Made by a program: the position numbers and the translations under genes. The notes under the pieces were generated by a model. It saw nothing but the letters and a program-made list of their open reading frames with translations. It was not told the DNA's origin and did not search any database. Positions 33,025 to 59,603 of a stretch of 64,000 nt of DNA are shown one piece after another. This DNA comes from an uncultured Thermoplasmatales archaeon (GTDB taxonomy: Archaea; Thermoplasmatota; E2; DHVEG-1), in NCBI GenBank assembly GCA_964347865.1, contig CAYGAC010000011.1:3693-67692 (forward strand), written 5' to 3'. Position 1 is the first letter of the stretch, and each line of letters starts with the position of its first letter.

Positions 33025-33029
33025 ATAAA

Positions 33030-34028
33030 ATGATTACATTATCGAAAATGTTTTGGAAAATTATAACTTTTATATATTTTGGTGACAAACCGGAATCTCC
33101 AATCAGTAGTTTAAAATATATCAGAATTATCGATTCATTAATTTACAGGTTTTCGAGAGGAACAGCAAATTTTGAAACACTCCTTTATAAATATGTTTTA
33201 TTAACTAAAAAATTAAGATATGTTTCGAATTTCAATCCAATAGTCATTGGAGGTTGTCCGAGAAGTGGTACAACATTAGCACGAGCATTAATCGGTATAC
33301 ATCCAAAAATTGCAAGTCCCCAACTAGAATGTAATATTTTACCAATGCCCAGAGATATGAATTTTTTAAAAAACGTTTTTGAATTCTCGTCTAAAGAAAT
33401 CAATGAATTAAATACATCATATAAAGATCCAGTTTCTTTCACAGAAAAAACCTTGAAATTGTATACCCAAAAGGAAAAAAAACAATTCGTTGCTTTGAAA
33501 AATCCTTTTCATATTGTTATTGTCAAACAACTTTTCCATTATTTTCCAAATATGAAATTTATTCATGTTATTAGAGATGGTAGAGACACTGCTTGTTCAT
33601 TAAGAACCTTTCCTAAGAGAAAAATAGTAAATGGTCAAATTGTCCCAAATATTATAAGAAATCCTTTTCATTGGTGTATAAGACGCTGGGTATTATGTGT
33701 TAAGCGAGGAAGAAAAAAAGGGATTATGAATGATAGATATTTCGAAGTAAAATACGAAAATTTAGTTTTCAATACAGAAATTACCTTGCAAAAAATATTT
33801 GAATTCATTGGTGTAGAAATGATAATTTTAGATGATCTTCTCAATTTTTATAAATATGAAAAAGAAGACAAACATTTACAGCAAACTGTAGGAGTAAAGA
33901 AACCAATATATCAAAAATCAATTGAAAGATGGAAAAATGATATGGACGAGAATGAAAAAGAAAAATTCAAACATATGGGCGGGAAATTGTTGATAGATTT
34001 GGAATATGAAACAGATTTAAATTGGTGA
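33030..34028 (+). CDS. sulfotransferase-family protein
   Basis: PAPS 5'-phosphosulfate loop GCPRSGTTL and 3'-phosphate motif VIRDGRDTACS. Confidence 0.75.
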   Translation: MITLSKMFWKIITFIYFGDKPESPISSLKYIRIIDSLIYRFSRGTANFETLLYKYVLLTKKLRYVSNFNPIVIGGCPRSGTTLARALIGIHPKIASPQLECNILPMPRDMNFLKNVFEFSSKEINELNTSYKDPVSFTEKTLKLYTQKEKKQFVALKNPFHIVIVKQLFHYFPNMKFIHVIRDGRDTACSLRTFPKRKIVNGQIVPNIIRNPFHWCIRRWVLCVKRGRKKGIMNDRYFEVKYENLVFNTEITLQKIFEFIGVEMIILDDLLNFYKYEKEDKHLQQTVGVKKPIYQKSIERWKNDMDENEKEKFKHMGGKLLIDLEYETDLNW

Positions 34029-34128
34029 TCATAATCTAATTTTCTATTCTGTTAGATAAAGTTATTATTAGAGTAACTACTATTTTTAACAACTATAAAA
34101 TTCTGAATTTACTAAATAATTGTTAAGA

Positions 34129-35334: not shown

Positions 35335-35445
35335 TCATTTTTCTCCTTTTTAATCCATATTTGATTAATTTTATGTTATCCGTAAATGATGTATATTTCA
35401 ACATCACTATCTCACAAAGATGTCGTTTATATGAAATCGATATAT

Positions 35446-36750: not shown

Positions 36751-36754
36751 AGTA

Positions 36755-39700
36755 CTATCTTTTATCTATAATATCTTTTTTAAGTGTATCTTCTATCTTT
36801 AATAAAGATATTCTTTTTTTATCACTTCTTGCTTCAAAAATAGATATTATAAATCCATAGAAACCAGTTAGAACATCGGTTATTAGATGACCAGCAATTG
36901 AAAGAACTAATGCCTTTTCTGGGGAAACTCCATAAAATGAGAAAAGAAAAATCAGCGTTGCCTCCCGCGTTCCAAGCCCTGCTGATGTTATGGGTATGAA
37001 CGCTACCACATTCGCTATTGGATATAACATAAGGAATTCAAAATACGGCACCTCGATATCCAATGACAATCCTAAAATGTAGATCTGTGAATATATAATA
37101 ATCCAGGAGGAAATGACGATTATAAATGGGCATATTAAACTTTTAATACTCGGAAAATCCTTGTAAAAACTGTCAACAAATCTAGTTAGGTAAGGTTTAA
37201 ACTTTTTTGGTATTAATAATTTTATAAGAATATGGAATGTTTTTTCTCCCCTTTCTTTTTTAATAAAGAAACCGTAAATAGCTAAAGTAGCTAGCAGGAA
37301 AATAATAGTAATCAGAAAAACTTCAGGAACTCTATTTATAATTATAAAAGCACCGATAATCATCATTATATAAAGAGATAAGGTATGAACTCCCTCTTCG
37401 ACAATTAAATTTACAAATAATTTACCGGTAGGTTCACCTGTTTTCTCTTTTAAATGAGGTATTCTCATTAATTGACCAACATATCCGGGTGTTATAGAAC
37501 CATAAAAGTAACCTATTAAAAATATCTTTAATGAGGTGATGAAACTAACATTTATCTTTTGTTTTTTGAGGATGATTTGCCAGACATAGTTTCTTATAAA
37601 CATCCTTGGAATTGTTAGAGATGCAGAAATTATAATTAAGTAGGGAGATATTTTCAAAAAGGTAGATGCTATCTCATCAGTACCAATATCAATAATAAGA
37701 TAGATGAGTAAAAAGATACCAATAAGTGGCATAAATCTCTTAATATATTTTAAAATATTCTCTCTATTAAGAAATCTATTTTTCTTCCTTTCTTTTAATA
37801 TTTTTTTAAAGTTGAAAAATGCAAAAATTAAAACAATGATAGCAGCAACTAAACAAAAATAAAACCCTATGCTTGGTCCCCAATTGCTAGATACTGTTGT
37901 ACGTATGCCCTCTCCAATTAAACTAATATCTAAATCTCCTCCTCCAAAAAAACCTCCAACTCCAATTTTGCATAATTCGGACATTGCATAATAAAATACA
38001 ACAATAGAGAAGGTTAGTGCGAGAGCTCCAAAAGATATTGATAAGAATAAAAGCCTATTTTTATTAAATTTATCTAAAAAAATGTTTATAATTATTAAAA
38101 TACATCCTATTACAATTGAAATAAACAATAAAATCATTGCATTTGTAAATATTTCTGGTAAAGATACTATTTCCCCAGCAAGAAGATTTGGAGAGGTTAC
38201 TGATGTAACCATCGTTGGAGGGATCAAAAACATTTTTGATGAAGTTTCTATTTGAGAAACAGCACCATCTATGCTCCACCATGGACTAATAATTGAAATA
38301 ATTGCTAAGGTTACTGCTAATATTTTTAGGAATAATCTAATATCTTTTTTTCTATAGCTAAGAAATAAACCAATGAATAAAAACAAAATAGAAGAAAGTG
38401 TTACTATTAATGGAAAAACGGGTTTCTCATTTGTTATTAAATCATATGTTCTTTCATTATTAACATTGATTTTTCTTTCTCCTATTAGATTATCATTCCT
38501 ATATGTTTTTATTTTATAATTACCTGGAGGTAAGGATATCTGAACAAATCCTTTTTCTTCAGAATTTATTTCTGTTTTTTTACCCGATCTTGTTATTTCA
38601 GTTAGCACATTATTTAACAGAATTCCCCGAGAATCGAAAACTTTCATTTTTACATTAAATTCTGCAGGAAATACAAGAGATCTCTCCGTTTCGTCGGGAA
38701 CTTCGATATTTTCTTTTACAAAGAATAACTTATATTGTAAATAAAGAAGATAATTGGTAGGAATAAGATTCGTAAAATGATAATTATTTTTTTGAATTTC
38801 ATCTGGATATAACTCTGTTGGTTCATCCATTTCATTGCTAATTAAAAATGGATCAAGAGTGATTTCTGGAGCTAAATCCCAGGTATCTAAAATTTCTAAG
38901 TCAAAATCGTATCTTTTAATATCTATTGATTTTTTTATTGGAAAAATATTTCTGTAATATCTTAACCTAAAAGAATCATTATAGACAGCAAATCCATTAT
39001 ATAGAATCTTTAGTTCATATTTGTACAAATTATTACATGGAATTTTTATTAATGATTTGCCTTCTCCATCAGTTATGGATTCCGATATTGAAACGTTATC
39101 TTTTGCAATAATCAACTTAGCGTCATTTATTGCATTATTATTTTGATCTACTAGAGAAACTTGTACGGAGCCTTCTGGTCTACAAAATACATGGATCTTT
39201 GTGCTTTCCTTTATGTCTACAATCTTAAATCCTATAAATTTCCTTTCTTTTCCAAAAAAAGGATTCTCGATAAAGATCTTGACAAGGTATCTTCCCGGTT
39301 TGAGATTTTGAAAATTTATCTTTTTAAAGAAAGTTAGATTTTTCCAGTCAAAAATACCCAATGCTAATTTAATTTTCTCAATAATCTTTGTATCCTCAAA
39401 ACTAGGAATCGGATTTGTTAATAATCGTCCTCCTATTCCTGTTGAAATAAGCTCATTATTGTAGTATAATTCTGCACCGATATAGGATAGATTTTTACCG
39501 GTTAATATAGATAGAGCAGATCCCATAGGTGTTGATGGTTTCAAATGAACAAAAACTGTTAGAGAACTGCCCCCTACTTCTTCCTCCTCTTCTATAATTT
39601 CTTCTTTATGTGAAGGACTTATTTTTATTATTGATTGAAAAAGCTCCGCTTCTTTTTCAACACCTCTATATCCCCCTACATCAGTTGAAAAGAATTCAGC

Positions 39701-41056
39701 ATCATATTCTACGATAAGATCATTAGGTACATCTAGATCATGAAGTAAATCCATTTCATATGAATTTCTACTAAACTCTACAAAAATCATATTGGCTTCA
39801 AGTCCTGGTAGATCGGAGGAATCCTGTTCACGTCCTTTTATCTGAATACCATCTCTTTCCTCTGTTCCTGACTTTATTACATTATTTGAATTTAATATAA
39901 TTGCATGAGCGGTACCTGTTTCACCTTCATCAAAAGAAATCCATGCTCTTTCTCCTAGATCGAGGTCTTCTTCTGTGTTTATAAACAACGTGCTTTTCCA
40001 GGTACCGGGACCAGGGAAAACATCAGGATCTGGATTTAACTTATATTCTGCTATTGTCCCCTGTTCAGTATATACGTGAAAATATGGATATATCCTCCCA
40101 AAATTCAGTTCTTTTATTGAATTACTCTCTAATCCACCACATTGAAAGCTTGCATAAGTTCCTTCGACTTCAGGTTCTATTGCGACTGAAAATTCTTTTA
40201 AAATTTCATGTTTAACATGGGCAATAATTCTTTTATGTTCTGTTGGACAATAATAGTATTTATAGGTCACTGTACTTTTTATATCTTTTTTATCTGAACC
40301 GCTTACAATTCCAAATTTCACCATTAAATTTCCATCAACAAATATATTTTTAGAAATCAGATTTTCAACCGATCCCGAATAATCTTCCAAACCGGGACCA
40401 TAATAATACATAAAATCAAATGACGCAAAGAGTTCTCCATTTTTGAGCGTTACATCAGTTGCTCCTGGTTTTAACTTGGTGACTTGTTGAGCAGTACCCC
40501 CACCCATAAACTTTCCACCTTGGGCAACTGCATAAATTATTGATTCTTCTTCAGTGATTTTATAATAGTGTGATTCAAAAGGATATCCGGGAATTGGCTC
40601 ATATTTATAATATGATTCTTCAATCTTAACATGATCTGGATAATTTGGATCGGGTCTTTCCTGGTTATCATAATACACAAAGTAACGTTCATCTCCTGTG
40701 GCATCTTCAGGAATTAAAAAAACAAGACTACAAGATTTGATATAGTTCTCATCTGAATAATTGAGATCGTATATCTGAGATTCAATATCATAATGATTCT
40801 CATTTTCATGGTAAACAACTCGGACTGAGTGCTCTTTTTCATTTTTTGCCCAACAAGGATTATTAAATTCAATATAGGTGTCAATTGGCTGAAATTTAGC
40901 TTGATCATCACTCGTATTTATTGGTATAAATAATTCCTGTCTGAAAGACCAATCTTTATACCAAAAATTTGAATCATCTTTGGATATGCATACCGGAGTA
41001 AAAGATAGAAGAATAAAATCTGCTACTAGTATTAAGAGTATAAGCCTATTTACCAT
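36755..41056 (-). CDS. 1433-aa membrane protein: large extracellular N-terminal region fused to a multi-TM block and a C-terminal flippase-like (UPF0104/LPG-synthase-TM) domain
   Basis: Signal anchor. WYKDWSFRQELFIPIN (DUF2341-like start, tentative). CarboxypepD_reg-like segments. More than 10 TM segments. The C-terminal ~330 aa (about 36758-37740) contain IPITSAGLGTREATL. Confidence 0.7.
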   Translation of the reverse strand: MVNRLILLILVADFILLSFTPVCISKDDSNFWYKDWSFRQELFIPINTSDDQAKFQPIDTYIEFNNPCWAKNEKEHSVRVVYHENENHYDIESQIYDLNYSDENYIKSCSLVFLIPEDATGDERYFVYYDNQERPDPNYPDHVKIEESYYKYEPIPGYPFESHYYKITEEESIIYAVAQGGKFMGGGTAQQVTKLKPGATDVTLKNGELFASFDFMYYYGPGLEDYSGSVENLISKNIFVDGNLMVKFGIVSGSDKKDIKSTVTYKYYYCPTEHKRIIAHVKHEILKEFSVAIEPEVEGTYASFQCGGLESNSIKELNFGRIYPYFHVYTEQGTIAEYKLNPDPDVFPGPGTWKSTLFINTEEDLDLGERAWISFDEGETGTAHAIILNSNNVIKSGTEERDGIQIKGREQDSSDLPGLEANMIFVEFSRNSYEMDLLHDLDVPNDLIVEYDAEFFSTDVGGYRGVEKEAELFQSIIKISPSHKEEIIEEEEEVGGSSLTVFVHLKPSTPMGSALSILTGKNLSYIGAELYYNNELISTGIGGRLLTNPIPSFEDTKIIEKIKLALGIFDWKNLTFFKKINFQNLKPGRYLVKIFIENPFFGKERKFIGFKIVDIKESTKIHVFCRPEGSVQVSLVDQNNNAINDAKLIIAKDNVSISESITDGEGKSLIKIPCNNLYKYELKILYNGFAVYNDSFRLRYYRNIFPIKKSIDIKRYDFDLEILDTWDLAPEITLDPFLISNEMDEPTELYPDEIQKNNYHFTNLIPTNYLLYLQYKLFFVKENIEVPDETERSLVFPAEFNVKMKVFDSRGILLNNVLTEITRSGKKTEINSEEKGFVQISLPPGNYKIKTYRNDNLIGERKINVNNERTYDLITNEKPVFPLIVTLSSILFLFIGLFLSYRKKDIRLFLKILAVTLAIISIISPWWSIDGAVSQIETSSKMFLIPPTMVTSVTSPNLLAGEIVSLPEIFTNAMILLFISIVIGCILIIINIFLDKFNKNRLLFLSISFGALALTFSIVVFYYAMSELCKIGVGGFFGGGDLDISLIGEGIRTTVSSNWGPSIGFYFCLVAAIIVLIFAFFNFKKILKERKKNRFLNRENILKYIKRFMPLIGIFLLIYLIIDIGTDEIASTFLKISPYLIIISASLTIPRMFIRNYVWQIILKKQKINVSFITSLKIFLIGYFYGSITPGYVGQLMRIPHLKEKTGEPTGKLFVNLIVEEGVHTLSLYIMMIIGAFIIINRVPEVFLITIIFLLATLAIYGFFIKKERGEKTFHILIKLLIPKKFKPYLTRFVDSFYKDFPSIKSLICPFIIVISSWIIIYSQIYILGLSLDIEVPYFEFLMLYPIANVVAFIPITSAGLGTREATLIFLFSFYGVSPEKALVLSIAGHLITDVLTGFYGFIISIFEARSDKKRISLLKIEDTLKKDIIDKR

Positions 41057-48189: not shown

Positions 48190-49695
48190 TCATAAAAAGT
48201 TAATTTCTTTAGGTAATTTTTTTAAATATTTTCTAAATTCAGTAGGCCATTTATTAGGATCTATTCCTTTTTGCGCTAAAAATGCAGTTGCCCATCGTTC
48301 CAGTCCAATACCTGAACATCCACTCCAAAGCTCACTTTTTTGGGCTTTTATATTGAATGCTTTAATATACTTATCTCCAAGGATACTTAAGTTTAGAAAT
48401 TCAAGCCATTCCGATTTTTCTCGACTACCTCGATAGGGCATATACGATTCAAAATCAATAGTACCAGTATCTTGGTGTATTTCTGTATCATCAATTTTTC
48501 CTGCTTGTTGCATATACCACGGAGTTACCCATGCCATGCGCCATTCAAGATCGAAAATATTGTTAAAAACATGTTTATACCGGTCCAATAACTTCTCCCG
48601 AAGAGTGAGAAGTTGCTCTCTTGTTCCAATATAGATGGGTTCAATTCTATGAAATTCATCAACGCGCTCTATGCCATGTCTTCCTCCAGATTCATATCTA
48701 GCAGAAATAGCAGTTTTATCATAAACTAATATTGGGAGTGCCTCTTCCGATATTGTTTTACTTTTGAAAGCCCAGTAAATAACAGGACATTGAGCATAGC
48801 AAATCCCTGCATGTGGGATGCTTAAATTCTTATTTAACTCATCATATGATATTTCTTTAGTAATTTTTGTAAGATCAATAAATTTCTGCCATTTCTCAAC
48901 ATCACGAGTGGTTGGTTCCGCAATATAATAAAACTCACTAGGCATACCTTCCATATGACCTGTTTTTAACCAGATTTCAAAAGGAACAACATGCGATTCT
49001 ATAATTTCTTGAAAACCAAGAGGTTTTAATACTTCATTTATCGCTATATTCTCCATGGCTCTTAATATTGCCGTTATTTGAGAATGGTAAAACCATTTTC
49101 CCTTGGTTGGACCTTGTTTTAACCAACCAAGTTTCACCATTTCTTCCGTTGGATCTTTAGACCAAATTGGTTTCTTTTTTTCAGATTCCTCTATTAACTT
49201 CCAATACTCCCCTTTTCCCTCATAATACTGGTTTTCAACCTTCTCTTTTACAAGCTTAATCATTCTGTCGATATAATTTTTTCTTAAAAATTCCTCTGAT
49301 ACATCTTTTAGATTAATACTTACATTCTTACCTGTACATTCTACTTCAGCATGGGGAATTGAAATTTCTTTCAATGGTTTTTTTTCTAATTCAAATTCAA
49401 TTTTATATTTGGTGATTTCTATTTCTCTTATTCCTATTTTATGTTTTTTACCTAATTCTTTACTAATAGAATTTTTTATCTGAAGTAATGCGTTATGCGG
49501 TCGAAAACTTCCATAAGAAATAATGTTGAGAAATAACGATTTTTTCCCAATCCTAAAATTTCCAATACTTGCAATTTTTTTATGATATTTTTTAACTATA
49601 TTATCGTTAGCTTCGGAAATAAATTTCTCAATATCTTTATTTATTTTCGATACGTCTTGGCCAAACGTAAAATTGGCCTCTAAATTAAATTTCAT
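48190..49695 (-). CDS. serS: seryl-tRNA synthetase, methanogen-type (type 2)
   Basis: 501 aa with an atypical N-terminal domain. HAGICYAQCP, and class II motif 3-like SGCSGIGLERW. Confidence 0.7.
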   Translation of the reverse strand: MKFNLEANFTFGQDVSKINKDIEKFISEANDNIVKKYHKKIASIGNFRIGKKSLFLNIISYGSFRPHNALLQIKNSISKELGKKHKIGIREIEITKYKIEFELEKKPLKEISIPHAEVECTGKNVSINLKDVSEEFLRKNYIDRMIKLVKEKVENQYYEGKGEYWKLIEESEKKKPIWSKDPTEEMVKLGWLKQGPTKGKWFYHSQITAILRAMENIAINEVLKPLGFQEIIESHVVPFEIWLKTGHMEGMPSEFYYIAEPTTRDVEKWQKFIDLTKITKEISYDELNKNLSIPHAGICYAQCPVIYWAFKSKTISEEALPILVYDKTAISARYESGGRHGIERVDEFHRIEPIYIGTREQLLTLREKLLDRYKHVFNNIFDLEWRMAWVTPWYMQQAGKIDDTEIHQDTGTIDFESYMPYRGSREKSEWLEFLNLSILGDKYIKAFNIKAQKSELWSGCSGIGLERWATAFLAQKGIDPNKWPTEFRKYLKKLPKEINFL

Positions 49696-49722
49696 GCTTA
49701 GGTTGTTATATTTTTAGAATAC

Positions 49723-49947
49723 TTAATTCTTATCGATAATCTTTTCAGCAACTGATAAGCAAGCTAGATAGTCATCTAGTGTATGGATAAGTGATGAAAC
49801 AGACTTACTCTCAATAAATACTTCAAGTTTCTCACCATGTAATCTCGACTCAACAAAATCTAAGTCATCGACTTTTATAGAACGAAGAACTTTTTCTGCT
49901 TTCTCAGAGTTTTCATATTCGAATATTAAATTACATGATACTTTCAT
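49723..49947 (-). CDS. pcc1: KEOPS complex subunit Pcc1
   Basis: 74 aa. FEYENSEKAEKV...SLIHTLDDYLACLSVAEK resembles Pcc1/CTAG. Confidence 0.6.
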   Translation of the reverse strand: MKVSCNLIFEYENSEKAEKVLRSIKVDDLDFVESRLHGEKLEVFIESKSVSSLIHTLDDYLACLSVAEKIIDKN

Positions 49948-49948
49948 A

Positions 49949-51292
49949 CTATCCCTTCAATTGTTGATTTAGAATTTTGTTAACATTTTCTAAAAAATCA
50001 TTTTCTTTATCTATATCTATTGTTGCCCCAGCAGCAATCTTATGTCCACCACCATATCCTCCCAATTTTGAAGTGACAGTTTTCATTGCATTCCCAAGAT
50101 CTAATCCTTTCCTTACAAGATTCTGATCACCTCTACATGAAACATGGATTTCATCGTCTTTTCTGGCGATTGAAAATAATGGTTTTTTCCCATCAAGAAT
50201 ATAGTTCATAGCAATACCTGCAACAACACCTCCAAGGGAAGAACTATCACTATAGAAATATCTCATTCCTTCTTTTTCTTTCATTCCGTTTTGTTCTAAT
50301 TCTATAAGATAATCGAGGATTTTTTGTTTATAATCTTTCTCAACGTCAACTCCCTCCATAAAAGCATCATTATCACCAAAACAGATTGATAGACCTAGAC
50401 CACGATGCTTATTCTTACCACATGCATCGAGTAGATCTGCAAATCGTTCTAGTTCACAACCTAAGAATTCAGAAAAATATCTTCTTCTTATAGCGATGTC
50501 TAAAATTGTTGTTTGGCAACCCGCTTTTATAAGTTTAAATAATAAATAAGATTGCAATCTAATCAGGTTATCCTGCTCAATATCAACGATTTTTACATTT
50601 TTATCAATATTCATTTGCTCAAGAATGCTTTCAATTTCATCTTTATTTCCAGATAGTTCTTTGTAATAGGGATCGATGGAAAAAAAGATAGCATCAAATA
50701 TTGAATCTCCATAAAGTTTTATACCCGTACGTTCATCCAGAAATCCTTCTTCTAATGCCTCTTCTAATATAACTTTATTAAAACCTCTAATACCACCAAT
50801 ATGTTGTTTATCGCCAATCGCACCAGCTAATGCCATTGGGGATAAATCCTTATTTTCAATGTTCAATTCCTTTGCACAGAAAAAACTTAGAGTAGCACCA
50901 GATGCTTCATAGTTACCATCAATTCCACACAAGTTGGCATTTATTTGTAAAACATTTTTTCCAACTTCCGATTTAAGGTACTGATGATGATCAAAAATAA
51001 TAACTTTGCATCCAAGATTTTCTAATGTTTCAATCTGTCCACTCCCCATATCAGAAAAAATGATGAGTTCATTTTCCTCTTTCGCTAATTTTTCTAGACC
51101 TTTGTTAAAAGGATTTCTCATAAGTGTTGCATGGAAATCATAACCTTCACGATAAAGAGCATTACATAATATTCCCGCAGCAGATATTCCATCAGCATCA
51201 TAATGAGAAACAACTCGTATCCGACTAGATTTAGGTGTGGATAATATAATATTTGCTGCTTTTTTACTTAATTTTGAAATATCATCTGACAT
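49949..51292 (-). CDS. RecJ-like DHH/DHHA1 phosphoesterase (archaeal RecJ/Cdc45 homologue)
   Basis: HYDADGISAAG, IIFDHHQY (DHH) and GGGHKIAAGA (DHHA1). Confidence 0.8.
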   Translation of the reverse strand: MSDDISKLSKKAANIILSTPKSSRIRVVSHYDADGISAAGILCNALYREGYDFHATLMRNPFNKGLEKLAKEENELIIFSDMGSGQIETLENLGCKVIIFDHHQYLKSEVGKNVLQINANLCGIDGNYEASGATLSFFCAKELNIENKDLSPMALAGAIGDKQHIGGIRGFNKVILEEALEEGFLDERTGIKLYGDSIFDAIFFSIDPYYKELSGNKDEIESILEQMNIDKNVKIVDIEQDNLIRLQSYLLFKLIKAGCQTTILDIAIRRRYFSEFLGCELERFADLLDACGKNKHRGLGLSICFGDNDAFMEGVDVEKDYKQKILDYLIELEQNGMKEKEGMRYFYSDSSSLGGVVAGIAMNYILDGKKPLFSIARKDDEIHVSCRGDQNLVRKGLDLGNAMKTVTSKLGGYGGGHKIAAGATIDIDKENDFLENVNKILNQQLKG

Positions 51293-51333
51293 GTGTAAAA
51301 GTAAAAACTACCACTACCTAAAAAAGATAGTGC

Positions 51334-51789
51334 TTATTCGAACAGAAGTTTTGCCTGTTCAGGGGTGTATTTCCAACCTTTTGGTAATCTTTTTTCTGCA
51401 TGATAATAATTTGTGAGTCGCCTTATTTTTGATTCAGTAAGCTGTAAGTTTCTTTTATTTTTCAAATCTTTTTTATTTACATCAAGATGTTTTTTTAGCT
51501 TAAGTGCAGTTTTTATAAGATTTCTCAAATCTTCAGGTATCTCAGATTTGATATCATTTTTTTCAAGTATCTGAGTAATCTTTTTACCTGTTGCAATTTT
51601 CACATCAGGAACAGCATATTGATCTCGTAAAATCATCCCTATCTCACTTGTGGATTTCTCATTTTTAGCAAGTTCGATAATTCTTGCCTCGATTTCTCTA
51701 GGATTAAGTGAACTCCATTCAGGATGCTTCTTTCTAATTGGATGGGTAGATCCTGATTTTCCTTTTCTTCTGGCATGGATTCGAGCCAT
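51334..51789 (-). CDS. rps15: 30S ribosomal protein uS15
   Basis: MARIHARRKGKSGSTHP...RRLTNYY. Confidence 0.9.
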   Translation of the reverse strand: MARIHARRKGKSGSTHPIRKKHPEWSSLNPREIEARIIELAKNEKSTSEIGMILRDQYAVPDVKIATGKKITQILEKNDIKSEIPEDLRNLIKTALKLKKHLDVNKKDLKNKRNLQLTESKIRRLTNYYHAEKRLPKGWKYTPEQAKLLFE

Positions 51790-52125
51790 TATAGTTTACC
51801 TCAAGTTATTTGTAAAGTAAGTCCTGAATAAAGTTGTGATATTTAGCATTTACCCTTATCCTATTAAATACTATTTTCTTTTTTAACTTCTTAATCTCAA
51901 TTTAAAAATAAATGATTAGTAATCAATTTTATAATCAATATTTTTATATGATTCTCTTTAAATATTTTTTATTATTGTATCGTTTTTTCAACAATTCAGA
52001 CATTTTGTTAAGGGCTAACAGTAGATGAAGAAGGAAATATTCAAAAACATAGTGACTGGGAGAGGAAAAATCCATACTCTACTGAACCAGGTTTTACAAA
52101 CCTAACTCTTTGTCCAAATTTTATA

Positions 52126-53106
52126 TTGACAGAAGCTGTTGTTAAACTTCATCCCGTTTGGGATGATGAACAAGCTGTTCTAGTACCCTTTGATAATATA
52201 AGAGATGCATATAGAATTTTAATAAAACTTGGTAAACGTGATGTGGGATTATCACTTGCAGTTCTTTCACGAAAATATCTGGCAGAATTTCTTAGTCCAA
52301 CTCTGCAAATCTCAAAAGATTTTGATTTTGTATGTAAAAATTATCTGAAACTTAACTATGTAGTAGCCGTTATTTGTAATAAAGATGATAAAAAAATAGT
52401 CGAAGATATGGTAGATTATACAATTGATCAATCCTTAATGAAAAGTTTGATATTGGGTGCACCTAGATTTACAAATCTTAGAGATAGTGAATTTATGAAA
52501 ATACTCTCTGAAGAAGACGATCCACTTAAAGCGATATTTGCAGGACCAATGAAAAAACATCTAGAAAAAGCATTAGATCCTTCACCTGAAAATGTCGCTA
52601 AAGTTTTTGATGAGGATCTCCAAGAGTTTTTCACAAAAGTATATTCTAAACCAGAAATGACTGATATCGTTTGGTTACATGCATTCCGAATACTTCCAAC
52701 AAGAATGATGAGACAGCAAATGTTCATGGGTCCAGGAGCAGCTATGTGGACTGGTGATGAAGATCATTATATTAACTGGATTAAGATGTTTGATGAAATG
52801 GGAGAAAAATATAATTTAGAAAATTCTCTTGGTTTTATTAGTCCACTTGATCATGGAAAGTTTGCTTATATGGAATATGATTATTATTATGATCATAACG
52901 ATCCAGATGAATGTGAAAGAATAAGTAAGTCTCTTATAGAATCAATGAAAAAAACGTTGGTAATGGGTAAGGGACTAACGATTCTAAACTATCTTTTTAA
53001 GGGAATATATCGAAAAGAACATGTCATGTATCCAATACCTGAGGGAATTTCCGAGGAAGAAGAAGAACTGTTTGATGATTTAATTGAGACAGTTTTAGGA
53101 GGGTAG
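52126..53106 (+). CDS. FAD-linked oxidase C-terminal-domain protein lacking the N-terminal FAD-binding domain (frame open from 52012; only a TTG start)
   Basis: FILTEAVVKLHP...VLVPF matches the (G)IITEATLKLxP junction of GlcD/AGPS-type oxidases. GFISPLDHGK lies near the C-terminus. Only 38 codons are open upstream before a stop and an AT-rich spacer. Confidence 0.55.
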   Translation: MTEAVVKLHPVWDDEQAVLVPFDNIRDAYRILIKLGKRDVGLSLAVLSRKYLAEFLSPTLQISKDFDFVCKNYLKLNYVVAVICNKDDKKIVEDMVDYTIDQSLMKSLILGAPRFTNLRDSEFMKILSEEDDPLKAIFAGPMKKHLEKALDPSPENVAKVFDEDLQEFFTKVYSKPEMTDIVWLHAFRILPTRMMRQQMFMGPGAAMWTGDEDHYINWIKMFDEMGEKYNLENSLGFISPLDHGKFAYMEYDYYYDHNDPDECERISKSLIESMKKTLVMGKGLTILNYLFKGIYRKEHVMYPIPEGISEEEEELFDDLIETVLGG

Positions 53107-53111
53107 CTTTA

Positions 53112-53525
53112 ATGGTAAAATTTCTTTCTGATGAATGGATTGAAATTGGTAAAAAATATATACTGGAAAAACTCGATCCAGAAAAAGATTTGAAAAATAT
53201 TACTACTTCATTACTTGGGGTCGTAGAGCATATTCCGCCAGATGGTACAACAATGAATTTCTACCTAGAATTTGAGAATGGAAATTTAATGGATTTTATA
53301 GTAAATACTGGAAATACCTTTGAAGAAAAAGAAGCCGTATATGAGGTAAGAGGTAACTATGGAACTTATAAAAGTGTCCTTAAGGGAGAGATGAGCCTGG
53401 GGATCGCTGTTTTAAAAAATAGATTAAAAGTCAAGGGTAGTAAACTGCAGGCACTTAAATTGATAAAACCACTTGATGGAGTAATTGTATCACTGACAGA
53501 AATTACAGATGAATTTGAAGATTAA
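53112..53525 (+). CDS. SCP2 (sterol-carrier-protein-2-like) lipid-binding protein
   Basis: 137 aa. FLSDEWIE..., ...YKSVLKGEMSLGIAVLKNRLKVKGSKLQALKL. Confidence 0.7.
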   Translation: MVKFLSDEWIEIGKKYILEKLDPEKDLKNITTSLLGVVEHIPPDGTTMNFYLEFENGNLMDFIVNTGNTFEEKEAVYEVRGNYGTYKSVLKGEMSLGIAVLKNRLKVKGSKLQALKLIKPLDGVIVSLTEITDEFED

Positions 53526-53538
53526 AAAGTGATTTAAA

Positions 53539-54903
53539 ATGATACCTAAAGCAGAATTAGAATTTGAAAGAAGAATAGGAAAATTCATTCCTCCAAAAGA
53601 AAACTGGACACCAATTGACAAGGCTCTTTTCACACAAAAAATCTTTTTTAAAGATTATCAAAAAACTGCAGACTTAACCTTTCATGCCATAAAATATAAC
53701 TTTGAACATCATTATGAAAAAAATTCATTATATCGTCGGTTATGTGAAGTAAATAAAATTACTCCAACGACTATTAAATCTAAGGAAGATTTGTATAAAA
53801 TCCCCCTTCTACCAGATTCTTTCTTTAAGGACTATCCTGAAGACAAAGGTTTTTTAAACTGGTTAGACAACATCTATACTGGTACAACTCCCATGCCTGA
53901 ATTTAGAACAGAGACTCCAGATCACGACGATGTTATTGAAGAGTTTAACAAAAAAGGTGTCAGTATTATGTTTACCAGTGGAACGAGTGGTCGCTTCAGT
54001 TTCATTCCACGTGATAATGGATCATGGGATCGCTTAAAATATAACGCTATGAGATCCGTAGTCGAGTTAATGGATTATGATCCAAATGACACGGTTATTT
54101 TGCTTATCCCGGACCCTCGATTAACAAATCTTACAATAGCTAGTCTTTTTGGCATTGCCTATGATTTGTATGATCCACAAAATATCCATGTTGCACTTGA
54201 AGACATGAAAATAACGACCTCGTTTTTACGAATGCAACGGAATGAAGCCATCGGTCTTAAGGAGAAAATCAAAGCAAAAGCTATGTCAAAGATTAGTCCT
54301 ATTGTTCAGAAAAAATCTGATGGTAAAATTATTTCTCTTCTAGAAAATTTAGAAAAAGAAGGAAAACGAGTAAATATTGCTGGTCCACCATTTTGGCTTA
54401 ATCGAATCATAGAAAGAATGATAAAAGAGGGACGAAAAGTAAAATTGCCAGGTAGTCAAGTACTTACAGGAGGAGGTTGGAAAGCTGAAGAAGACAAACG
54501 GGCACCTGAAGAAATCTTCAGAGAAAAGGTTGAAAATGTTCTCGGAATTCCACAAAATCGATACCACGATGTTTATGCGATGTCTGAGTGCAGCTCAATT
54601 TTTCTGAGCTGCGAAGGTCATTATAAACATGTTCCTCCAACAGTAATCCCAATCGTTTTGGATGAGGAACTCAATTCAATTGGATATAATGAGCTTGGTC
54701 GTTTTGCTTTTATAGATCCCCTTCCTGAAAGCTATCCTGGATTTATTATCACTGGTGACAGGGTAAAACTATTGAAAAAATGTCCAGTGTGCAATCGTGA
54801 AGGACCAGTACTTGATATTGAAGTTTCCCGATTACCAGGTGTTGAAGGACGAGGTTGTGCGGCAGTAATGGCAGAATTGATGCAGGAGGAGGAATATAAC
54901 TAA
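53539..54903 (+). CDS. LuxE-like acyl-protein synthetase / adenylate-forming enzyme
   Basis: IMFTSGTSGRFSFIPRD. C-terminus GDRVKLLKKCPVCNREGPVLD...EGRGCA. Confidence 0.65.
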   Translation: MIPKAELEFERRIGKFIPPKENWTPIDKALFTQKIFFKDYQKTADLTFHAIKYNFEHHYEKNSLYRRLCEVNKITPTTIKSKEDLYKIPLLPDSFFKDYPEDKGFLNWLDNIYTGTTPMPEFRTETPDHDDVIEEFNKKGVSIMFTSGTSGRFSFIPRDNGSWDRLKYNAMRSVVELMDYDPNDTVILLIPDPRLTNLTIASLFGIAYDLYDPQNIHVALEDMKITTSFLRMQRNEAIGLKEKIKAKAMSKISPIVQKKSDGKIISLLENLEKEGKRVNIAGPPFWLNRIIERMIKEGRKVKLPGSQVLTGGGWKAEEDKRAPEEIFREKVENVLGIPQNRYHDVYAMSECSSIFLSCEGHYKHVPPTVIPIVLDEELNSIGYNELGRFAFIDPLPESYPGFIITGDRVKLLKKCPVCNREGPVLDIEVSRLPGVEGRGCAAVMAELMQEEEYN

Positions 54904-55304
54904 TGGTGCGTTTTCCATCTGATGAATGGATTAAAACTTTCAAAGAAGAGCTCAATAAGAATAAAATGTATGAAGATGTGGCAAAAGAGTGGGAGGGTGA
55001 TTTCCTTTTTGTCATTGAACCTGATGAGGAATTAAAAAAAGAAGTTGTATTTTACGTTGATTTATGGCATGGAAAATGCAGGGATGCACATATTGTAGAT
55101 GGTAATAAGAAAGCTGCCTTTGTTTTTAAAGGTCCGTACTCTAATTGGAAGAAAGTTATCAACAAGGAGCTTGATCCCATTCGAGGCCTTATCCAAGGAA
55201 TGTTTACTGTTGATGGAGATTCAAAAGTAATCCTTGATCAAGCAAAAGCTGCACAAGAGTTAGTGAATACTGCAAGTAAGATTCCTGTTGAATTTGTAGG
55301 TTAA
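54903..55304 (+). CDS. SCP2-like lipid-binding protein (second paralogue)
   Basis: 133 aa. FPSDEWIKTFKEELN...YSNWKKVINKELDPIRGLIQGMFTVDGD. The ATG overlaps the upstream TAA (TAATG). Confidence 0.7.
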   Translation: MVRFPSDEWIKTFKEELNKNKMYEDVAKEWEGDFLFVIEPDEELKKEVVFYVDLWHGKCRDAHIVDGNKKAAFVFKGPYSNWKKVINKELDPIRGLIQGMFTVDGDSKVILDQAKAAQELVNTASKIPVEFVG

Positions 55305-55308
55305 CATT

Positions 55309-56862
55309 ATGACCAAAACTATTGATTGTTTTTTTTGGAATCCTAAACTTGGACTGAAAAATAAATTGGAATTTGTACACGAAGATATAGGTAATGGTAT
55401 TGTTCTTAGGAAACCAATCTTTACTATTGAAATACTGGATAAAATTATAAAAAGTATCAAACAAGCACGAATAGAGTATCTTCTGAAAATAGATATTCCA
55501 ACCGTTTTTGATACAATTGGAAAAGTTACTGACCTATGGATGAATCCAGAGTACAAAGGGAGAAGGATTGCTAGAGAAGTATTACCCACTGTTACCGGTT
55601 TTTCACTCGAGATGCTTGAATCGTGGGGTTTTGATCATTTTATGAGCATTTTGAAAAAAGAAAATCTTCCGTTATTTGGAAAACTAAAACCTGAAAATTA
55701 CAAAGAATTTTCTAATCTTAGTGATGGACTGGTTAAGGCTTTTGGAAAACCGAATATAATTCATTCTAATCATAGCCCCAAAGTTATTGGTCATATATGT
55801 GCTGGAAACATTCTCGGAATTGCTGCTTTTGAAATGATTTTAGATAAACTTATTGATGCTGCTAGTTGGATTAAGGTCCCATCTGAAGAACCTGTATTTG
55901 GAGCTCTTTATGCAAAATCTATTGAAGAGGTCGATCCAAAATTAGCTTATACAATAGCGGTTTTACCGTTTGAAAGCAATAATAAAAAGGTAAATGAGTT
56001 TCTCTTTTCGAAATCAGACATAGTTCGAGCAACAGGTGGGGAACTAGCGCGAAAAAATCTAACAGAGCTTGCGTTAAAACATAATATACCTATAGCTGGT
56101 CACTGGCATAAATTTAGCTTTATCACCATAGCAAGGGAATATTTGGATGAGAGAGCTCGAGCAATCGCTGAGTTAGTATCCCTTGATGTTACCGCATGGG
56201 ATCAGCAGGGATGTTTTTCACCACAAGAAATATTTGTTGAAAATAACGAAGATGTCACTCCTGAAGAATTTGCCGAAACACTTGCTGAGGAAATGGAGAT
56301 TACTTCCATGGCACTTCCAAAAGGTACAAATTCTGGAAAAATGCAAGTTTTAGATGGCTATCATCAATATTTTAAAAAGGAAATGATGGGTGAACCGGTA
56401 AAAATATTCCCATCACCAACGCATAAATGGCTTATAATTTATGATGGAAGTACCGCTCGTTTCGAACCATCTCCCTTGTTTCGAGTTATTCGGGTAAAAC
56501 CTGTTGATGATATAAAGGATATACCTACTCTTGTTAAACCGATCGGGAGTTTTTTACAAACAGTTGGAGTTGCAATACCTAATGACCGTTTGATTCCTTT
56601 TGCGAATGCTATTGGAGAAGTAGGTGCTACAAACATACGTGCGATTAGCAGTATGACACTTCAAAAACCATGGGAACCATGGGATGGGCGATTTCCGTTA
56701 CATGAACTTTTTGAACATGATAATGTGCGCTGGGTTAGTATAAGTACGAGAAATATTGACCAGGAAATAAGAACTGCGTTAGAAAGAAAACGTCTCATTG
56801 TTGATCAGAATTTACCGCCCGATAGTATACGACCAAACCGCACTACCCTACAATTAGACTAA
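55309..56862 (+). CDS. LuxC-like acyl-CoA (acyl-protein) reductase
   Basis: 517 aa. ICAGNILGIAAFE, and an ALDH-like catalytic Cys context AWDQQGCFSPQEIFV. Confidence 0.65.
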   Translation: MTKTIDCFFWNPKLGLKNKLEFVHEDIGNGIVLRKPIFTIEILDKIIKSIKQARIEYLLKIDIPTVFDTIGKVTDLWMNPEYKGRRIAREVLPTVTGFSLEMLESWGFDHFMSILKKENLPLFGKLKPENYKEFSNLSDGLVKAFGKPNIIHSNHSPKVIGHICAGNILGIAAFEMILDKLIDAASWIKVPSEEPVFGALYAKSIEEVDPKLAYTIAVLPFESNNKKVNEFLFSKSDIVRATGGELARKNLTELALKHNIPIAGHWHKFSFITIAREYLDERARAIAELVSLDVTAWDQQGCFSPQEIFVENNEDVTPEEFAETLAEEMEITSMALPKGTNSGKMQVLDGYHQYFKKEMMGEPVKIFPSPTHKWLIIYDGSTARFEPSPLFRVIRVKPVDDIKDIPTLVKPIGSFLQTVGVAIPNDRLIPFANAIGEVGATNIRAISSMTLQKPWEPWDGRFPLHELFEHDNVRWVSISTRNIDQEIRTALERKRLIVDQNLPPDSIRPNRTTLQLD

Positions 56863-58001
56863 TCAAGAAGAACAACCGACTCAGATACATTCCCTATTTC
56901 ATTGAACCTTGATCCTAATTTCTTCATAACCTTTGGCAATGTAGTATACTCCATATCAGCCATTGGTAATCGGTGCGGTTCAAATGGTCCGTGTCTTCTC
57001 ATATAATCGGTTATATGTTGAGCTTCAACTCGTGTACGATCAAATGCAGGATCATCAAACAAATCAACTGGTTCAGTCAATTTACCATTTTTCAACTGGA
57101 AACCAAGAGATGTTACCCGTGGTGGACCATCAAATCTAGTACATCGTGCCTGTTTAACAGAAACCGGCATTAATGGACCGTTATGAGAACCACGCATCCA
57201 TCCTGAAACTAAATGACCAAGTGCAAAACCTTCTAAAACTTCACCCAGAGCAGGAAGACCCGACTGTGATCGGACGAGTCCAGCTGGATCATCTTTCCCT
57301 ACATATTCTCCAGCCACCTGATATAATTTTTCGGTTGAAATGACAGAAACTGGTTCATTAGGAGGGAGCTTTGAAGTCTTTTTAGGAAAAACACGTTTGA
57401 TAACAAACCGTGATTTGGCTCCTATCAAGGCGAGAAGATCGTACATCTCTTCCGGTGCTTTCATGAAGACATGTTTGTGTTCCTGTATATCCCATACCTC
57501 AAAAATAAAACCGTCATGAACTGAAGGGTCAATGATTAAACCAGCAGTATTGAACGGATCTGCAAAAACTTTAAAGATCGGCAGATTAAAAGCGCCTGGC
57601 TCTGTTTTATCCATCATAAATGCAACTATGGGTTCAGCCTTTCTCTCAGTAAATTCCATTTCAGCTATCCCAGGTCCCATACCTTTAATGTTTCCAGAGA
57701 ATGCGTCACTGAGTAAATCTTGTCCTGCCCCATAAAGTCCTAGTTCTTTTGCTTTCTCTGTTGTTTCCCTAAATACATCCCATGCAAGTCCGTGAACCTC
57801 TTTGCTATCCTCACCGTTCATATGTGTCATAATAAGTTCAAGATCATCTCCACAATTAGTTACATGAAAATCTGTTAATAAACCAGAATTTTTTGCATCT
57901 CCAAGTCTTTTATTCGCAATTTCTTTTAGGTCGGGATGCACTGATGCATGTCCAGGCCAACCTCCTACATCTGCCTTAATTAAACTAAACGTAGTTTTCA
58001 T
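56859..58001 (-). CDS. fbp: fructose-1,6-bisphosphate aldolase/phosphatase (class V FBPase)
   Basis: MKTTFSLIKADVGGWPGHASVHP. AAGGAG Shine-Dalgarno site upstream of the ATG at 58001. Confidence 0.9.
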   Translation of the reverse strand: MKTTFSLIKADVGGWPGHASVHPDLKEIANKRLGDAKNSGLLTDFHVTNCGDDLELIMTHMNGEDSKEVHGLAWDVFRETTEKAKELGLYGAGQDLLSDAFSGNIKGMGPGIAEMEFTERKAEPIVAFMMDKTEPGAFNLPIFKVFADPFNTAGLIIDPSVHDGFIFEVWDIQEHKHVFMKAPEEMYDLLALIGAKSRFVIKRVFPKKTSKLPPNEPVSVISTEKLYQVAGEYVGKDDPAGLVRSQSGLPALGEVLEGFALGHLVSGWMRGSHNGPLMPVSVKQARCTRFDGPPRVTSLGFQLKNGKLTEPVDLFDDPAFDRTRVEAQHITDYMRRHGPFEPHRLPMADMEYTTLPKVMKKLGSRFNEIGNVSESVVLLD

Positions 58002-58112
58002 AATAACTCTCCTTTCTTTGGTATCACTAAAGGTTATATAAAGAATTTGGAAACACATTTCGTAAAGTATATATTTCTCCTCTTATTAGCGATAAAAATA
58101 GGTACAAATTTC

Positions 58113-59603
58113 ATGACGTTAAGACTCTACAATTCACTATCTAGAAAAAAAGAACCATTTAAACCTGTTGAAGATGGAAAAGTAAAGATGTATGTGTGCG
58201 GTATGACTGTTTATAGTGATGTTCATATAGGTCACGCCCGCACATATTTGGCATTTGACGTAATTCGGAGATATTTTGAACATTCTGGATACGATGTTTT
58301 GTATGTTCAAAATATCACAGATGTAGATGATAAGATAATTGCAGCAGCTAATAAAGAAGGTATAGATCCCATCAAATATTCAGAACGTTTTGCTGATAGA
58401 TGTCTCAAAGATTTGGATGATCTTGGAATTCGGAGAGCTGACTCATATCCCAAAGCTTCTGAGACCATTCCTGACATGATTGTGATGATACAAAAGATTC
58501 TGGAAAAAGGATATGGATATGTATCTGATGGTGATGTTTATTTCTCTGTTGAAAATTTCAAAGATTACGGAAAACTCTCTGGTCAAAGAATTGATGAGAT
58601 GATGAGTGGTGCTCGAGTTGAACCAGGAGATAAAAAACAAAAATCGTTTGATTTTGCTCTCTGGAAACAAGCAAAACCAGGGGAACCATTTTGGGAGTCT
58701 CCTTGGGGAAAGGGGCGACCAGGTTGGCATATTGAATGCTCCACTATGAGTGGTAAATATCTTGGAATGCCCTTTGACATCCATGGTGGTGGCATGGATC
58801 TTCGCTTTCCACATCATGAAAATGAAATTGCACAAGCTGAGGCTGCAACGGGGAAAGAGTTTGCTAAATATTGGATGCATATAGGCCTACTCACCGTTGA
58901 TGGAGAAAAAATGTCAAAATCTCTTGGGAATATAGTCAACGTTAAGGACCTAATGAACAAGTGGGATTCCGAAGTTATTCGTATGTTTTTCGCTCAAGCT
59001 CATTATCGAAGTCCACCCGATTTTAGCCAAACAGCACTAGAAAACACTCGGAAGGGTTTAGAAAGAATATACCGATTAAAAGAGAGATTAGAGGAACTTT
59101 CTACAAAAAATAGTGTATTGGATGAAAACAAATTAACAGAAAAAGAAAAACAATATCTTGCAAGTATAAATGAATTTAAACAAAAATTTGAACAGGCCAT
59201 GGATGACGATTTTAACACACCAGAAGCCTTTGCACAACTATTTGATTATATCAATACGAGCAACAGTTTTTTAGAACGCAATGAACATGTTGATGCTGCA
59301 CTATGCAAATATGGTCTTGAACAACTGTTGAAATTGGGAAACATTCTTACTCTTTTCCAACCTAAAAAAACCCATCCAGATGAAACTGTACTTTTTGAAA
59401 AATTACAAAAACTCATCCAGAAATACAAAGAAGTGGAAACAGAAGGCATCGAAGTAATTATAAAAACATTGATTGATATCAGAGAAGAGGAAAGGAAAAA
59501 GAAAAACTGGCAAATGGCAGATCGAATTAGAAAAGAACTCGAAGACATTGGGATAGAAATACAGGATACAAATAAAGGTCCTGTTTGGAAGAAAAGATTA
59601 TGA
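58113..59603 (+). CDS. cysS: cysteinyl-tRNA synthetase
   Basis: MTLRLYNSLSRKKEPF start, HIGHARTY (HIGH) and KMSKS. Confidence 0.9.
   Translation: MTLRLYNSLSRKKEPFKPVEDGKVKMYVCGMTVYSDVHIGHARTYLAFDVIRRYFEHSGYDVLYVQNITDVDDKIIAAANKEGIDPIKYSERFADRCLKDLDDLGIRRADSYPKASETIPDMIVMIQKILEKGYGYVSDGDVYFSVENFKDYGKLSGQRIDEMMSGARVEPGDKKQKSFDFALWKQAKPGEPFWESPWGKGRPGWHIECSTMSGKYLGMPFDIHGGGMDLRFPHHENEIAQAEAATGKEFAKYWMHIGLLTVDGEKMSKSLGNIVNVKDLMNKWDSEVIRMFFAQAHYRSPPDFSQTALENTRKGLERIYRLKERLEELSTKNSVLDENKLTEKEKQYLASINEFKQKFEQAMDDDFNTPEAFAQLFDYINTSNSFLERNEHVDAALCKYGLEQLLKLGNILTLFQPKKTHPDETVLFEKLQKLIQKYKEVETEGIEVIIKTLIDIREEERKKKNWQMADRIRKELEDIGIEIQDTNKGPVWKKRL

Follow-up and report, generated by a model that had tools for sequence, protein, structure and literature searches.

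The five-gene cluster reported here lies in a 64,000-nucleotide stretch of DNA from an uncultured Thermoplasmatales archaeon (contig CAYGAC010000011.1; the whole stretch is called the window below). Its nearest described counterpart is the LuxC-LuxE reductase of Photobacterium phosphoreum (PDB code: 7XC6), the complex of which has been described by cryo-EM (PMC9157457). Tian et al. 2022 (PMC9157457) characterise LuxE by a Lys238/Arg355 pair, by a Cys364 that sits in a flexible, short tail at the C terminus, by its ability to acylate itself and by a missing C-terminal ANL subdomain. Non-luminous LuxE-LuxC pairs occur in the flagellin glycosylation islands of Aeromonas, where they presumably produce an aldehyde from a fatty acid (PMC7874193). 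In ubiquinone biosynthesis, UbiJ and UbiT are small SCP2 proteins reserved for a set of soluble enzymes whose substrate is a hydrophobic isoprenoid lipid; under anoxia, UbiT is the partner of UbiU and UbiV, both Fe-S proteins (PMC9499169, PMC6747719). These two come closest to a precedent for SCP2 as the lipid carrier of a particular pathway, although their partner enzymes differ from those of the cluster and the analogy extends to the mode of action only.

The window cluster has the same two enzyme families as the P. phosphoreum system, with the Lys of GGGWK, the Arg, the Cys of the LuxE tail and the Cys of LuxC all conserved. LuxC of 7XC6 is the top structural match of its archaeal counterpart, and the absence of a C-terminal ANL subdomain is common to both LuxE proteins. 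The differences are considerable, however: identity to the P. phosphoreum enzymes is about 20%, the LuxE-like protein is about 80 amino acids longer, an SCP2 gene stands between the two enzyme genes, an Fe-S flavoprotein gene and a further SCP2 gene lie upstream, the host is an anaerobic archaeon, and luxA, luxB and luxD are missing. The Aeromonas-type clusters use acyl carrier protein (ACP), a 3-oxoacyl-ACP reductase and an AMP ligase, other LuxC clusters have radical SAM and KAS neighbours, and neither SCP2 nor the flavoprotein is found in the five outgroup contexts examined. The flavoprotein, in its intact orthologues, shares FAD_binding_4 and a two-domain fold with VAO/PCMH enzymes such as LctD, the D-2-hydroxyacid dehydrogenases and the eugenol and vanillyl-alcohol oxidases; unlike them, it has an Fe-S dicluster domain fused to its N terminus and its gene is paired with an SCP2 gene. 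The cluster is a putative LuxE/LuxC acid reductase with SCP2 partners, specific to its clade and linked to an Fe-S flavoprotein and SCP2 unit that can expand, and it is undescribed in the literature. No retrieved paper speaks of LuxC or LuxE in connection with SCP2 or Thermoplasmatota, and two Thermoprofundales genome papers (with the supplements of one of them) are silent on the cluster, in line with the first-pass annotation, which knew of no characterised system with such an interleaved SCP2 layout; none was found in the searchable literature.

The cluster occupies positions 52012-56862 of the window, on the plus strand (all positions are those of the window), and consists of the following features, to which the intergenic region upstream is added:

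51790-52020, no strand: AT-rich intergenic region that separates the divergent uS15 gene from the cluster, with a deletion junction at about 52012-52021 inside it

52012-53106, plus strand: ORF1, remnant (cap/C-terminal half) of a gene for an Fe-S and FAD-containing VAO/PCMH-type dehydrogenase, identified by alignment to longer orthologues

53112-53525, plus strand: SCP2a, 137 aa, partner of the flavoprotein, identified by profile comparison and by co-occurrence with the flavoprotein

53539-54903, plus strand: LuxE-like (adenylating) acyl-protein synthetase, 454 aa, identified by PF04443 and the match to 7XC6_E

54903-55304, plus strand: SCP2b, 133 aa, between LuxE and LuxC, identified by PF02036

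55309-56862, plus strand: LuxC-like acyl-thioester reductase, 517 aa, identified by PF05893 and the match to 7XC6_A

According to the listing of open reading frames (ORFs), these five same-strand frames fill the interval, the gaps between them being 5, 13 and 4 nt and the LuxE-like and SCP2b genes overlapping by 1 nt. The tight, co-directional arrangement between the genes of uS15 and a fructose-bisphosphate (FBP) aldolase/phosphatase, as the first-pass annotation described it, is confirmed, with the correction that the TAATG shared by the LuxE-like stop and the SCP2b start lies at 54901-54905, one base off the 54900-54904 given earlier. Shine-Dalgarno (SD)-like motifs precede SCP2a and SCP2b. 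The G+C content of the window is about 32%, at which, by our own estimate, the chance of an open frame as long as that of ORF1 (364 sense codons) is about 3e-13. Among window ORFs of at least 130 aa, none has a Pfam match to a luciferase (Bac_luciferase, luxA/luxB) or LuxD-type domain, which bears out the earlier observation that luxD and luxAB are absent, and these genes are not among the conserved neighbours of the related loci either. Without luxA, luxB and luxD, the cluster is not a lux operon (luxCDABE).

The 454-aa protein scores 94.6 bits on the Pfam LuxE model PF04443 (cutoff 24.9), while the NCBIfam models of the sister families PaaK, F390 and FlxY give 12-26 bits and no Pfam AMP-binding match was obtained on this protein. 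Its single match among PDB sequences is the LuxE chain of P. phosphoreum (7XC6_E, E 1.1e-17). Lys315, Arg431 and Cys440, situated in the motifs GGGWK, VSRL and GRGCAAV, align with Lys238, Arg355 and Cys364 of LuxE; the codon of Cys440 is at 54856-54858. The chain stops 14 residues past Cys440, which leaves it without a C-terminal ANL subdomain. Compared with the TRxxKGCxLS of LuxE, the tail GVEGRGCAAV has in common only the G-C and a basic residue. Both GGGWK and G[RK]GC are kept in all 57 full-length LuxE-like proteins of the clade. The LuxE-type adenylation loop quoted in the first-pass annotation, MFTSGTSGRFSFIPRD, was located in the protein, with SGTSG at residue 147, and the LuxE-type identity proposed there is upheld over a PaaK or F390-synthetase identity.

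The assignment of the 517-aa protein, which had likewise been called LuxC-type, proved equally sound: it scores 200.1 bits on the Pfam LuxC model PF05893 (cutoff 21), and its single PDB sequence match is LuxC of P. phosphoreum (7XC6_A). The quoted catalytic Cys context was found as well (AWDQQGCFSPQE, which includes Cys302). In the alignment of WDQQGCFSPQE with YDQQACFSTQD, Cys302 (codon 56212-56214) corresponds to the catalytic Cys296 of P. phosphoreum LuxC; it is invariant in a 36-sequence alignment, and the motif is kept in 58 of 58 LuxC-like proteins of the clade. An AlphaFold2 model of the protein (pLDDT 91.5) has 7XC6_A as its top Foldseek match (E 7e-22, TM 0.69/0.75), and generic aldehyde dehydrogenases (ALDHs) follow at E 1e-15 or worse, about six orders of magnitude behind. 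Neither enzyme comes near the NCBIfam equivalog cutoffs, the LuxE-like protein scoring 90.3 bits on NF052244 (cutoff 550) and the LuxC-like protein 65.5 bits on NF052251 (cutoff 750). Because the scores are so far below these cutoffs, we regard both, from their sequences, as members of the families and not as orthologues of the lux-operon enzymes.

Both small proteins are SCP2-fold paralogues, as had been noted earlier. SCP2b scores 33.7 bits on PF02036 (cutoff 21.3) and its family profile matches the Thermus SCP2 proteins 2CX7/1WFR (E 1.8e-27). SCP2a, with 17.8 bits, is under the same cutoff, and its assignment comes from a profile-profile comparison: the family profiles of SCP2a and SCP2b align in hhalign with a probability of 97.8% (E 1e-12, 27% identity). 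A paralogue of SCP2a in the related locus L003 scores 28.3 bits on Pfam SCP2, and the best weak PDB matches of SCP2a are SCP2 proteins. An exact-sequence look-up of SCP2a returned no record. Among 150 LuxC representatives no fusion of SCP2 to LuxC or LuxE was found, only LuxC-LuxE fusions, and the one long N-terminal extension examined, in P0344, contains no SCP2. The LuxC-LuxE fusions occur in both orders, which supports the idea that the two proteins work as one machine.

A tblastn survey with the five window proteins, covering 34 genome loci, showed that the order flavoprotein-SCP2a-LuxE-SCP2b-LuxC is present wherever the contig is long enough, down to the most divergent member (L031, 51% LuxC identity), and that, in total, about 30 of the 37 genome-derived or related loci have it, namely those of sufficient length to show order. 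Conservation of the gene order in relatives, on which the earlier prediction had been made to depend, is therefore seen in dozens of Thermoplasmatota (Thermoprofundales) contigs. Clustering of the ORFs of the 37 loci recovered LuxC in 37, SCP2b in 34, LuxE in 33, and the flavoprotein and SCP2a in 28 each, no other gene being widely shared. The cluster genes are under purifying selection (dN/dS 0.04-0.1). Genome matches to the 517-aa protein all come from Thermoplasmatota/Thermoplasmata metagenome-assembled genomes (MAGs) with the exception of two labels; Zhou et al. 2018 (PMC6461988) name two such MAGs, M11B2D and 3300003432D, as genomes of Thermoprofundales (MBG-D). Near-identical copies of the cluster labelled 'Candidatus Peregrinibacteria bacterium' and 'Petrotogales bacterium' (L002, JAUVDZ010000058.1, and P0048) are almost certainly the result of mis-binning.

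The LuxC proteins of the clade form a tight, isolated subfamily, which collapses to essentially one cluster at 50% identity, and an exhaustive search placed the next relatives at about 36% identity or less. A second homologue search, started from L031, returned mostly the same clade and added no neighbouring family. In the five nearest outgroup contexts (29-35% LuxC identity) LuxE directly abuts LuxC, or LuxC is accompanied by methyltransferase, radical SAM and KAS genes, and in none of the five was SCP2 or the flavoprotein found. The first-pass annotation called a fatty-acyl (or isoprenoid-acid) reducing module unexpected in such an organism; LuxE-LuxC pairs outside luminous bacteria are in themselves not unusual, LuxC-family clusters being numerous. 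Three metagenome contigs of up to 228 kb (L040-L042), probably archaeal, carry another LuxE-LuxC pair without SCP2, its LuxC being 35% identical to that of the window; the pair adjoins genes of an Elp3-like radical SAM protein, an unknown 334-aa protein and DUF371, and lies near MvhADG/HdrA-like hydrogenase genes and the gene of cysteinyl-tRNA synthetase (CysRS).

A metagenome scan with the flavoprotein alignment yielded 385 relatives, from which 79 loci were kept. In 33 of the 79, between one and three flavoprotein-SCP2a units in tandem are followed by LuxE and/or LuxC genes, and at least 16 loci, each with at least 3 kb of downstream sequence, have the flavoprotein-SCP2a pair, or the flavoprotein alone, in variable contexts without LuxC or LuxE. 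Tandem copies occur in L003, L005 and L024 and in metagenome loci such as L106, stand-alone units in L055, L059, L080, L081, L087-L096 and L119, and in these units the stop of the flavoprotein gene often overlaps the SCP2a start. Among the neighbours of the stand-alone units are genes of extracellular peptidases (M14 and C25), of an oligopeptide-binding protein, of an SNF amino-acid transporter and of an alpha/beta hydrolase, none of them conserved. Mean identities to the window proteins, calculated over 17 loci, are 54% for the flavoprotein cap, 51% for SCP2a, 73% for LuxE, 70% for LuxC and 82% for SCP2b, which is the most conserved protein of the cluster. Since the flavoprotein-SCP2a pair duplicates, stands alone and diverges faster than the rest, the cluster appears to be composed of a fast-evolving pair of variable copy number and a conserved LuxE-SCP2b-LuxC trio. 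The description in the first-pass annotation, that an SCP2 gene precedes each enzyme gene, was hence a wrong parse, as SCP2a duplicates with the flavoprotein and occurs paired with it where LuxC and LuxE are missing. No functional partner emerged among the conserved flanking genes, which reflect clade-level synteny only (uS15, GAN/RecJ, FBPase, CysRS, P-type ATPase), and Spearman correlations of between-gene divergence were uninformative on account of population structure.

The first gene of the cluster is truncated in the window. The frame of ORF1 is open from 52012, its first start codon is a TTG at 52126, preceded by neither an ATG nor an SD-like motif within the remnant, and it stops at 53106. 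ORF1 alone gave nothing usable on Pfam or NCBIfam, and its identity came solely from longer orthologues, since in every relative the frame runs on upstream to give a protein of 630-680 aa. These orthologues have an N-terminal Cys-rich 4Fe-4S dicluster domain (Fer4_8), an FAD_binding_4 (PCMH) domain (PF01565, 68-78 bits, without a counterpart match in ORF1) and a cap/C-terminal region for which no Pfam or PDB sequence match was found. The remnant aligns to residues 266-628 of the orthologue P0130 and is without both cofactor-binding domains. In the full-length AlphaFold model of P0130 (pLDDT 78.6, pTM 0.83) the whole flavoprotein part matches eugenol and vanillyl-alcohol oxidases, D-lactate/D-2-hydroxyacid dehydrogenase and LctD (E about 1e-16, TM 0.46-0.66), and LctD is also the best match of the family profile (E 3e-18).

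The deletion was mapped against L036, the locus with the closest LuxC (89% identity), which shares the upstream synteny (SerRS, Pcc1, GAN/RecJ, uS15) and carries an intact 655-aa gene at the position of the remnant. Window positions 49001-52012 align with L036 1756-4767 (88%) and 52021-56807 with 5717-10499 (83%), so that about 950 bp (L036 4768-5716) are without counterpart in the window. The missing segment holds 293 codons, the start codon and the 70 nt that precede it in L036, among which TATA-like and SD-like elements are seen; DNA next to the promoter was thereby lost, together with the coding sequence of the Fe-S domain and the greater part of that of the FAD-binding domain. The same junction is present in the L035 scaffold of a second assembly record (GCA_012974985.1), which is 100% identical outside its N gaps. 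Having lost its cofactor-binding domains wholly or in large part, the dehydrogenase copy of the window is dead and ORF1 is probably a pseudogene, in agreement with the FAD-oxidase remnant that the first-pass annotation had placed at the head of the cluster. In a paralogy tree the remnant is orthologous to the LuxE-proximal copy of genomes with two tandem copies (83% identity) and the L036 paralogue is a different one (63%); as L036 holds a different paralogue, the actual deletion may have been more extensive, starting 5' of a first copy and reaching into the second. The remnant keeps 364 sense codons, and its dN/dS against orthologues (0.08-0.105) is like that of the other cluster genes, from which it would follow that the loss is recent or the fragment still in use. 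A relative-rate test for faster decay of the remnant was confounded, L005 being an unclean outgroup and other genes being similarly asymmetric.

We propose, with a probability of roughly 55%, that the cluster encodes a CoA- and ACP-independent, SCP2-assisted reduction of a hydrophobic acid to the aldehyde, organised in two units, A (the flavoprotein and SCP2a) and B (the LuxE-SCP2b-LuxC trio), both characteristic of Thermoprofundales (MBG-D). The LuxE-like protein would adenylate a hydrophobic, most likely lipid, carboxylic acid at the expense of ATP and then move the acyl group onto its own C-terminal Cys440. The flexible tail would swing into the LuxC-like protein and hand the acyl group to Cys302, the thioester finally being reduced to the aldehyde by NAD(P)H. 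This chemistry, and the physical complex that it implies, is modelled on the characterised LuxCE complex. SCP2b would most likely be the soluble carrier that brings the insoluble acid to LuxE or removes the aldehyde, in place of the LuxD/acyl-ACP supply of luminous bacteria, and contacts with two partners would fit its exceptional conservation. Unit A, an Fe-S/FAD VAO-type dehydrogenase with SCP2a as its presumed private carrier, is autonomous; its redox step presumably concerns hydrophobic compounds of the same class, and the electrons would leave through the N-terminal Fe-S domain to an external acceptor. The Fe-S wire and the anoxic sediment habitat of the host suggest a dehydrogenase and not an O2-dependent oxidase. 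For all members of the cluster the proposed function is deduced from homology, gene context and catalytic residues, and in its favour every residue known to carry or activate the acyl group is conserved in the LuxE-like and LuxC-like proteins.

Several observations weigh against this proposal. The sole pointer to a lipid substrate is SCP2, and SCP2a is not indispensable, because two loci (L018 and L031) are without it. No lipid-metabolism gene is conserved beside the cluster, as judged by clustering of the neighbours of the loci, and the peptidase and peptide or amino-acid transporter genes that accompany the stand-alone flavoprotein-SCP2a units likewise include no lipid gene. A VAO-type dehydrogenase and an acid reductase both make carbonyls, and no obvious linear pathway joins them. 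The native promoter region of the first gene is apparently within the deleted segment, which makes the expression of the remaining genes in the window uncertain.

A more ambitious version of the proposal, which we hold to be rather improbable in its entirety, sees a soluble redox system for lipids in which the SCP2 proteins, instead of CoA or ACP, would shuttle fatty or isoprenoid acids and aldehydes between the flavoprotein and LuxE/LuxC, SCP2b being an obligatory third subunit of the reductase. Such a system could serve the salvage or catabolism of detrital lipids, possibly including archaeal isoprenoid chains, in anoxic sediment.

It is also conceivable, if unlikely, that the same enzymes act on something other than membrane lipids, namely on hydrophobic acids of the aryl or branched-chain kind that the fermentation of amino acids releases (phenylacetate, 4-hydroxyphenylacetate, 2-hydroxy acids). 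The flavoprotein would then be a dehydrogenase of the D-2-hydroxyacid or 4-alkylphenol type, and the reduction of acids would provide an electron sink. The best sequence and fold matches of the flavoprotein (LctD, D-lactate/D-2-hydroxyacid dehydrogenases, eugenol/vanillyl-alcohol oxidases) would suit such substrates, although its specificity-defining cap domain is without a recognisable relative. LuxE is related to the phenylacetate-CoA ligase PaaK, yet the PaaK/F390 models (14-22 bits) fall far under the LuxE models (90-95 bits) on the window protein. Thermoprofundales are reported as protein degraders (PMC6461988), and the M14/C25 peptidases, oligopeptide-binding protein and SNF transporter beside the stand-alone units could be read in the same sense; these neighbours are, however, not conserved, no flanking cluster is present in more than 7 loci, and such genes are abundant in these genomes. 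SCP2 domains, moreover, usually bind lipids.

The trio could alternatively run in the oxidative direction, a possibility to which we attach little weight. The flavoprotein would make a hydrophobic aldehyde, for instance out of an alcohol or through oxidative ether cleavage, LuxC would oxidise it to the enzyme thioester and LuxE would free the acid while forming ATP from AMP and PPi, so that exogenous lipids would be catabolised or salvaged and energy conserved. In principle, both the thioester chemistry of ALDHs and the formation of adenylates can be reversed, and this scheme would join the two units in a linear pathway. An Fe-S domain would be appropriate in a dehydrogenase that works anaerobically and passes its electrons to an external acceptor, and the hosts live in anoxic sediments rich in detrital lipids (samples WOR and SMTZ; PMC6461988). 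On the other hand, reverse operation is not known for any LuxE/LuxC system, the characterised LuxCE consuming ATP and NADPH (PMC9157457), the trio is intact in the window, where no functional flavoprotein gene adjoins it, and in the outgroups LuxE and LuxC occur without any flavoprotein.

That the window cluster is a decaying relic, the deletion having taken the operon promoter so that the downstream genes are no longer expressed, is still harder to credit. The deleted segment does contain the 70 nt 5' of the L036 start codon with their TATA-like and SD-like elements, and the remnant is without start codon and ribosome-binding site. Nonetheless, SCP2a, LuxE, SCP2b and LuxC are full length, free of frameshifts and in possession of all catalytic residues; SD-like motifs still precede internal genes, A/T-rich promoter-like sequence is left upstream, and the 364 sense codons kept by the remnant imply that any decay is very recent.

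An AGPS-specific relationship of the flavoprotein was considered and rejected, there being no specific similarity beyond the generic FAD domain and the fold search speaking against it: AGPS matches the family profile at E 2.7e-10, eight orders weaker than LctD and behind LDHD too, in a region confined to that generic domain, and it is not in the top 50 Foldseek matches of the model. The idea extended from the first-pass annotation, which took the AGPS/GlcD-like fragment as a hint of an ether-lipid route, that an alkyl-DHAP-synthase-like flavoprotein would let the cluster make fatty alcohol-derived ether lipids, has in its favour membership of the same VAO/PCMH superfamily and this weak match, and is scarcely tenable given that AGPS itself has no Fe-S domain, that no acyltransferase, DHAP or glycerol-phosphate gene is linked to the cluster, and that the characterised LuxC makes an aldehyde and not the alcohol that AGPS requires (PMC9157457).

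MBG-D/Thermoprofundales are among the most abundant uncultured archaea of marine and freshwater sediments. The cluster suggests that hydrophobic substrates have a pathway of their own in these archaea, one that is missing from the current metabolic reconstructions. Should the SCP2 proteins prove to be carriers, they would represent a third way, beside CoA and ACP, to present acyl chains to enzymes, and would offer an experimentally tractable entry to the processing and recycling of lipids by benthic archaea. The LuxE-SCP2b-LuxC trio could also be of interest for fatty-aldehyde engineering.

Outside the cluster, its two flanking genes and a possible membrane-lipid or glycan modification block (30466-41056) contain the following features:

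51334-51789, minus strand: uS15 (exact counterparts in L035/L036/L037 carry Pfam S13_N/S15)

56859-58058, minus strand: FBP aldolase/phosphatase, convergent to the cluster (exact counterparts in L035/L036/L037 carry Pfam FBPase_3)

30466-32088, plus strand: type I phosphodiesterase (Pfam)

32194-33024, plus strand: GT2 glycosyltransferase (Pfam)

33021-34028, plus strand: sulfotransferase (Pfam)

35446-36750, minus strand: GT28/UDPGT-like glycosyltransferase (Pfam)

36755-41056, minus strand: 1433-aa protein, the C terminus of which is an LPG_synthase_TM domain (Pfam)

The FBP aldolase/phosphatase ORF is probably overlong at its 5' end, as its orthologues are 370-380 aa and the alignment starts at about residue 17-20 (MKTTFS...). 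The same probably applies to the CysRS ORF (58047-59603, plus strand), with which most orthologues align from about residue 23 (MTLRLYN...). With both calls probably too long at the 5' end, the overlap of the two starts is likely an artefact. Large proteins with NosD, beta-helix, PKD or Big_7 domains, probably located at the cell surface or secreted, are encoded at 3993-5645 (minus strand) and at 12733-14055, 21088-22308 and 28713-30329 (plus strand). The ORF of a radical SAM protein that begins with a zinc ribbon of the HMPTM type (10576-11967, plus strand) overlaps the start of a UbiE/COQ5-type methyltransferase (11933-12658, plus strand). Finally, the 501-aa seryl-tRNA synthetase (SerRS) at 48190-49695 (minus strand), the 501-aa L036 counterpart of which carries Pfam tRNA_bind_4, is presumably the unusual methanogen-type SerRS.

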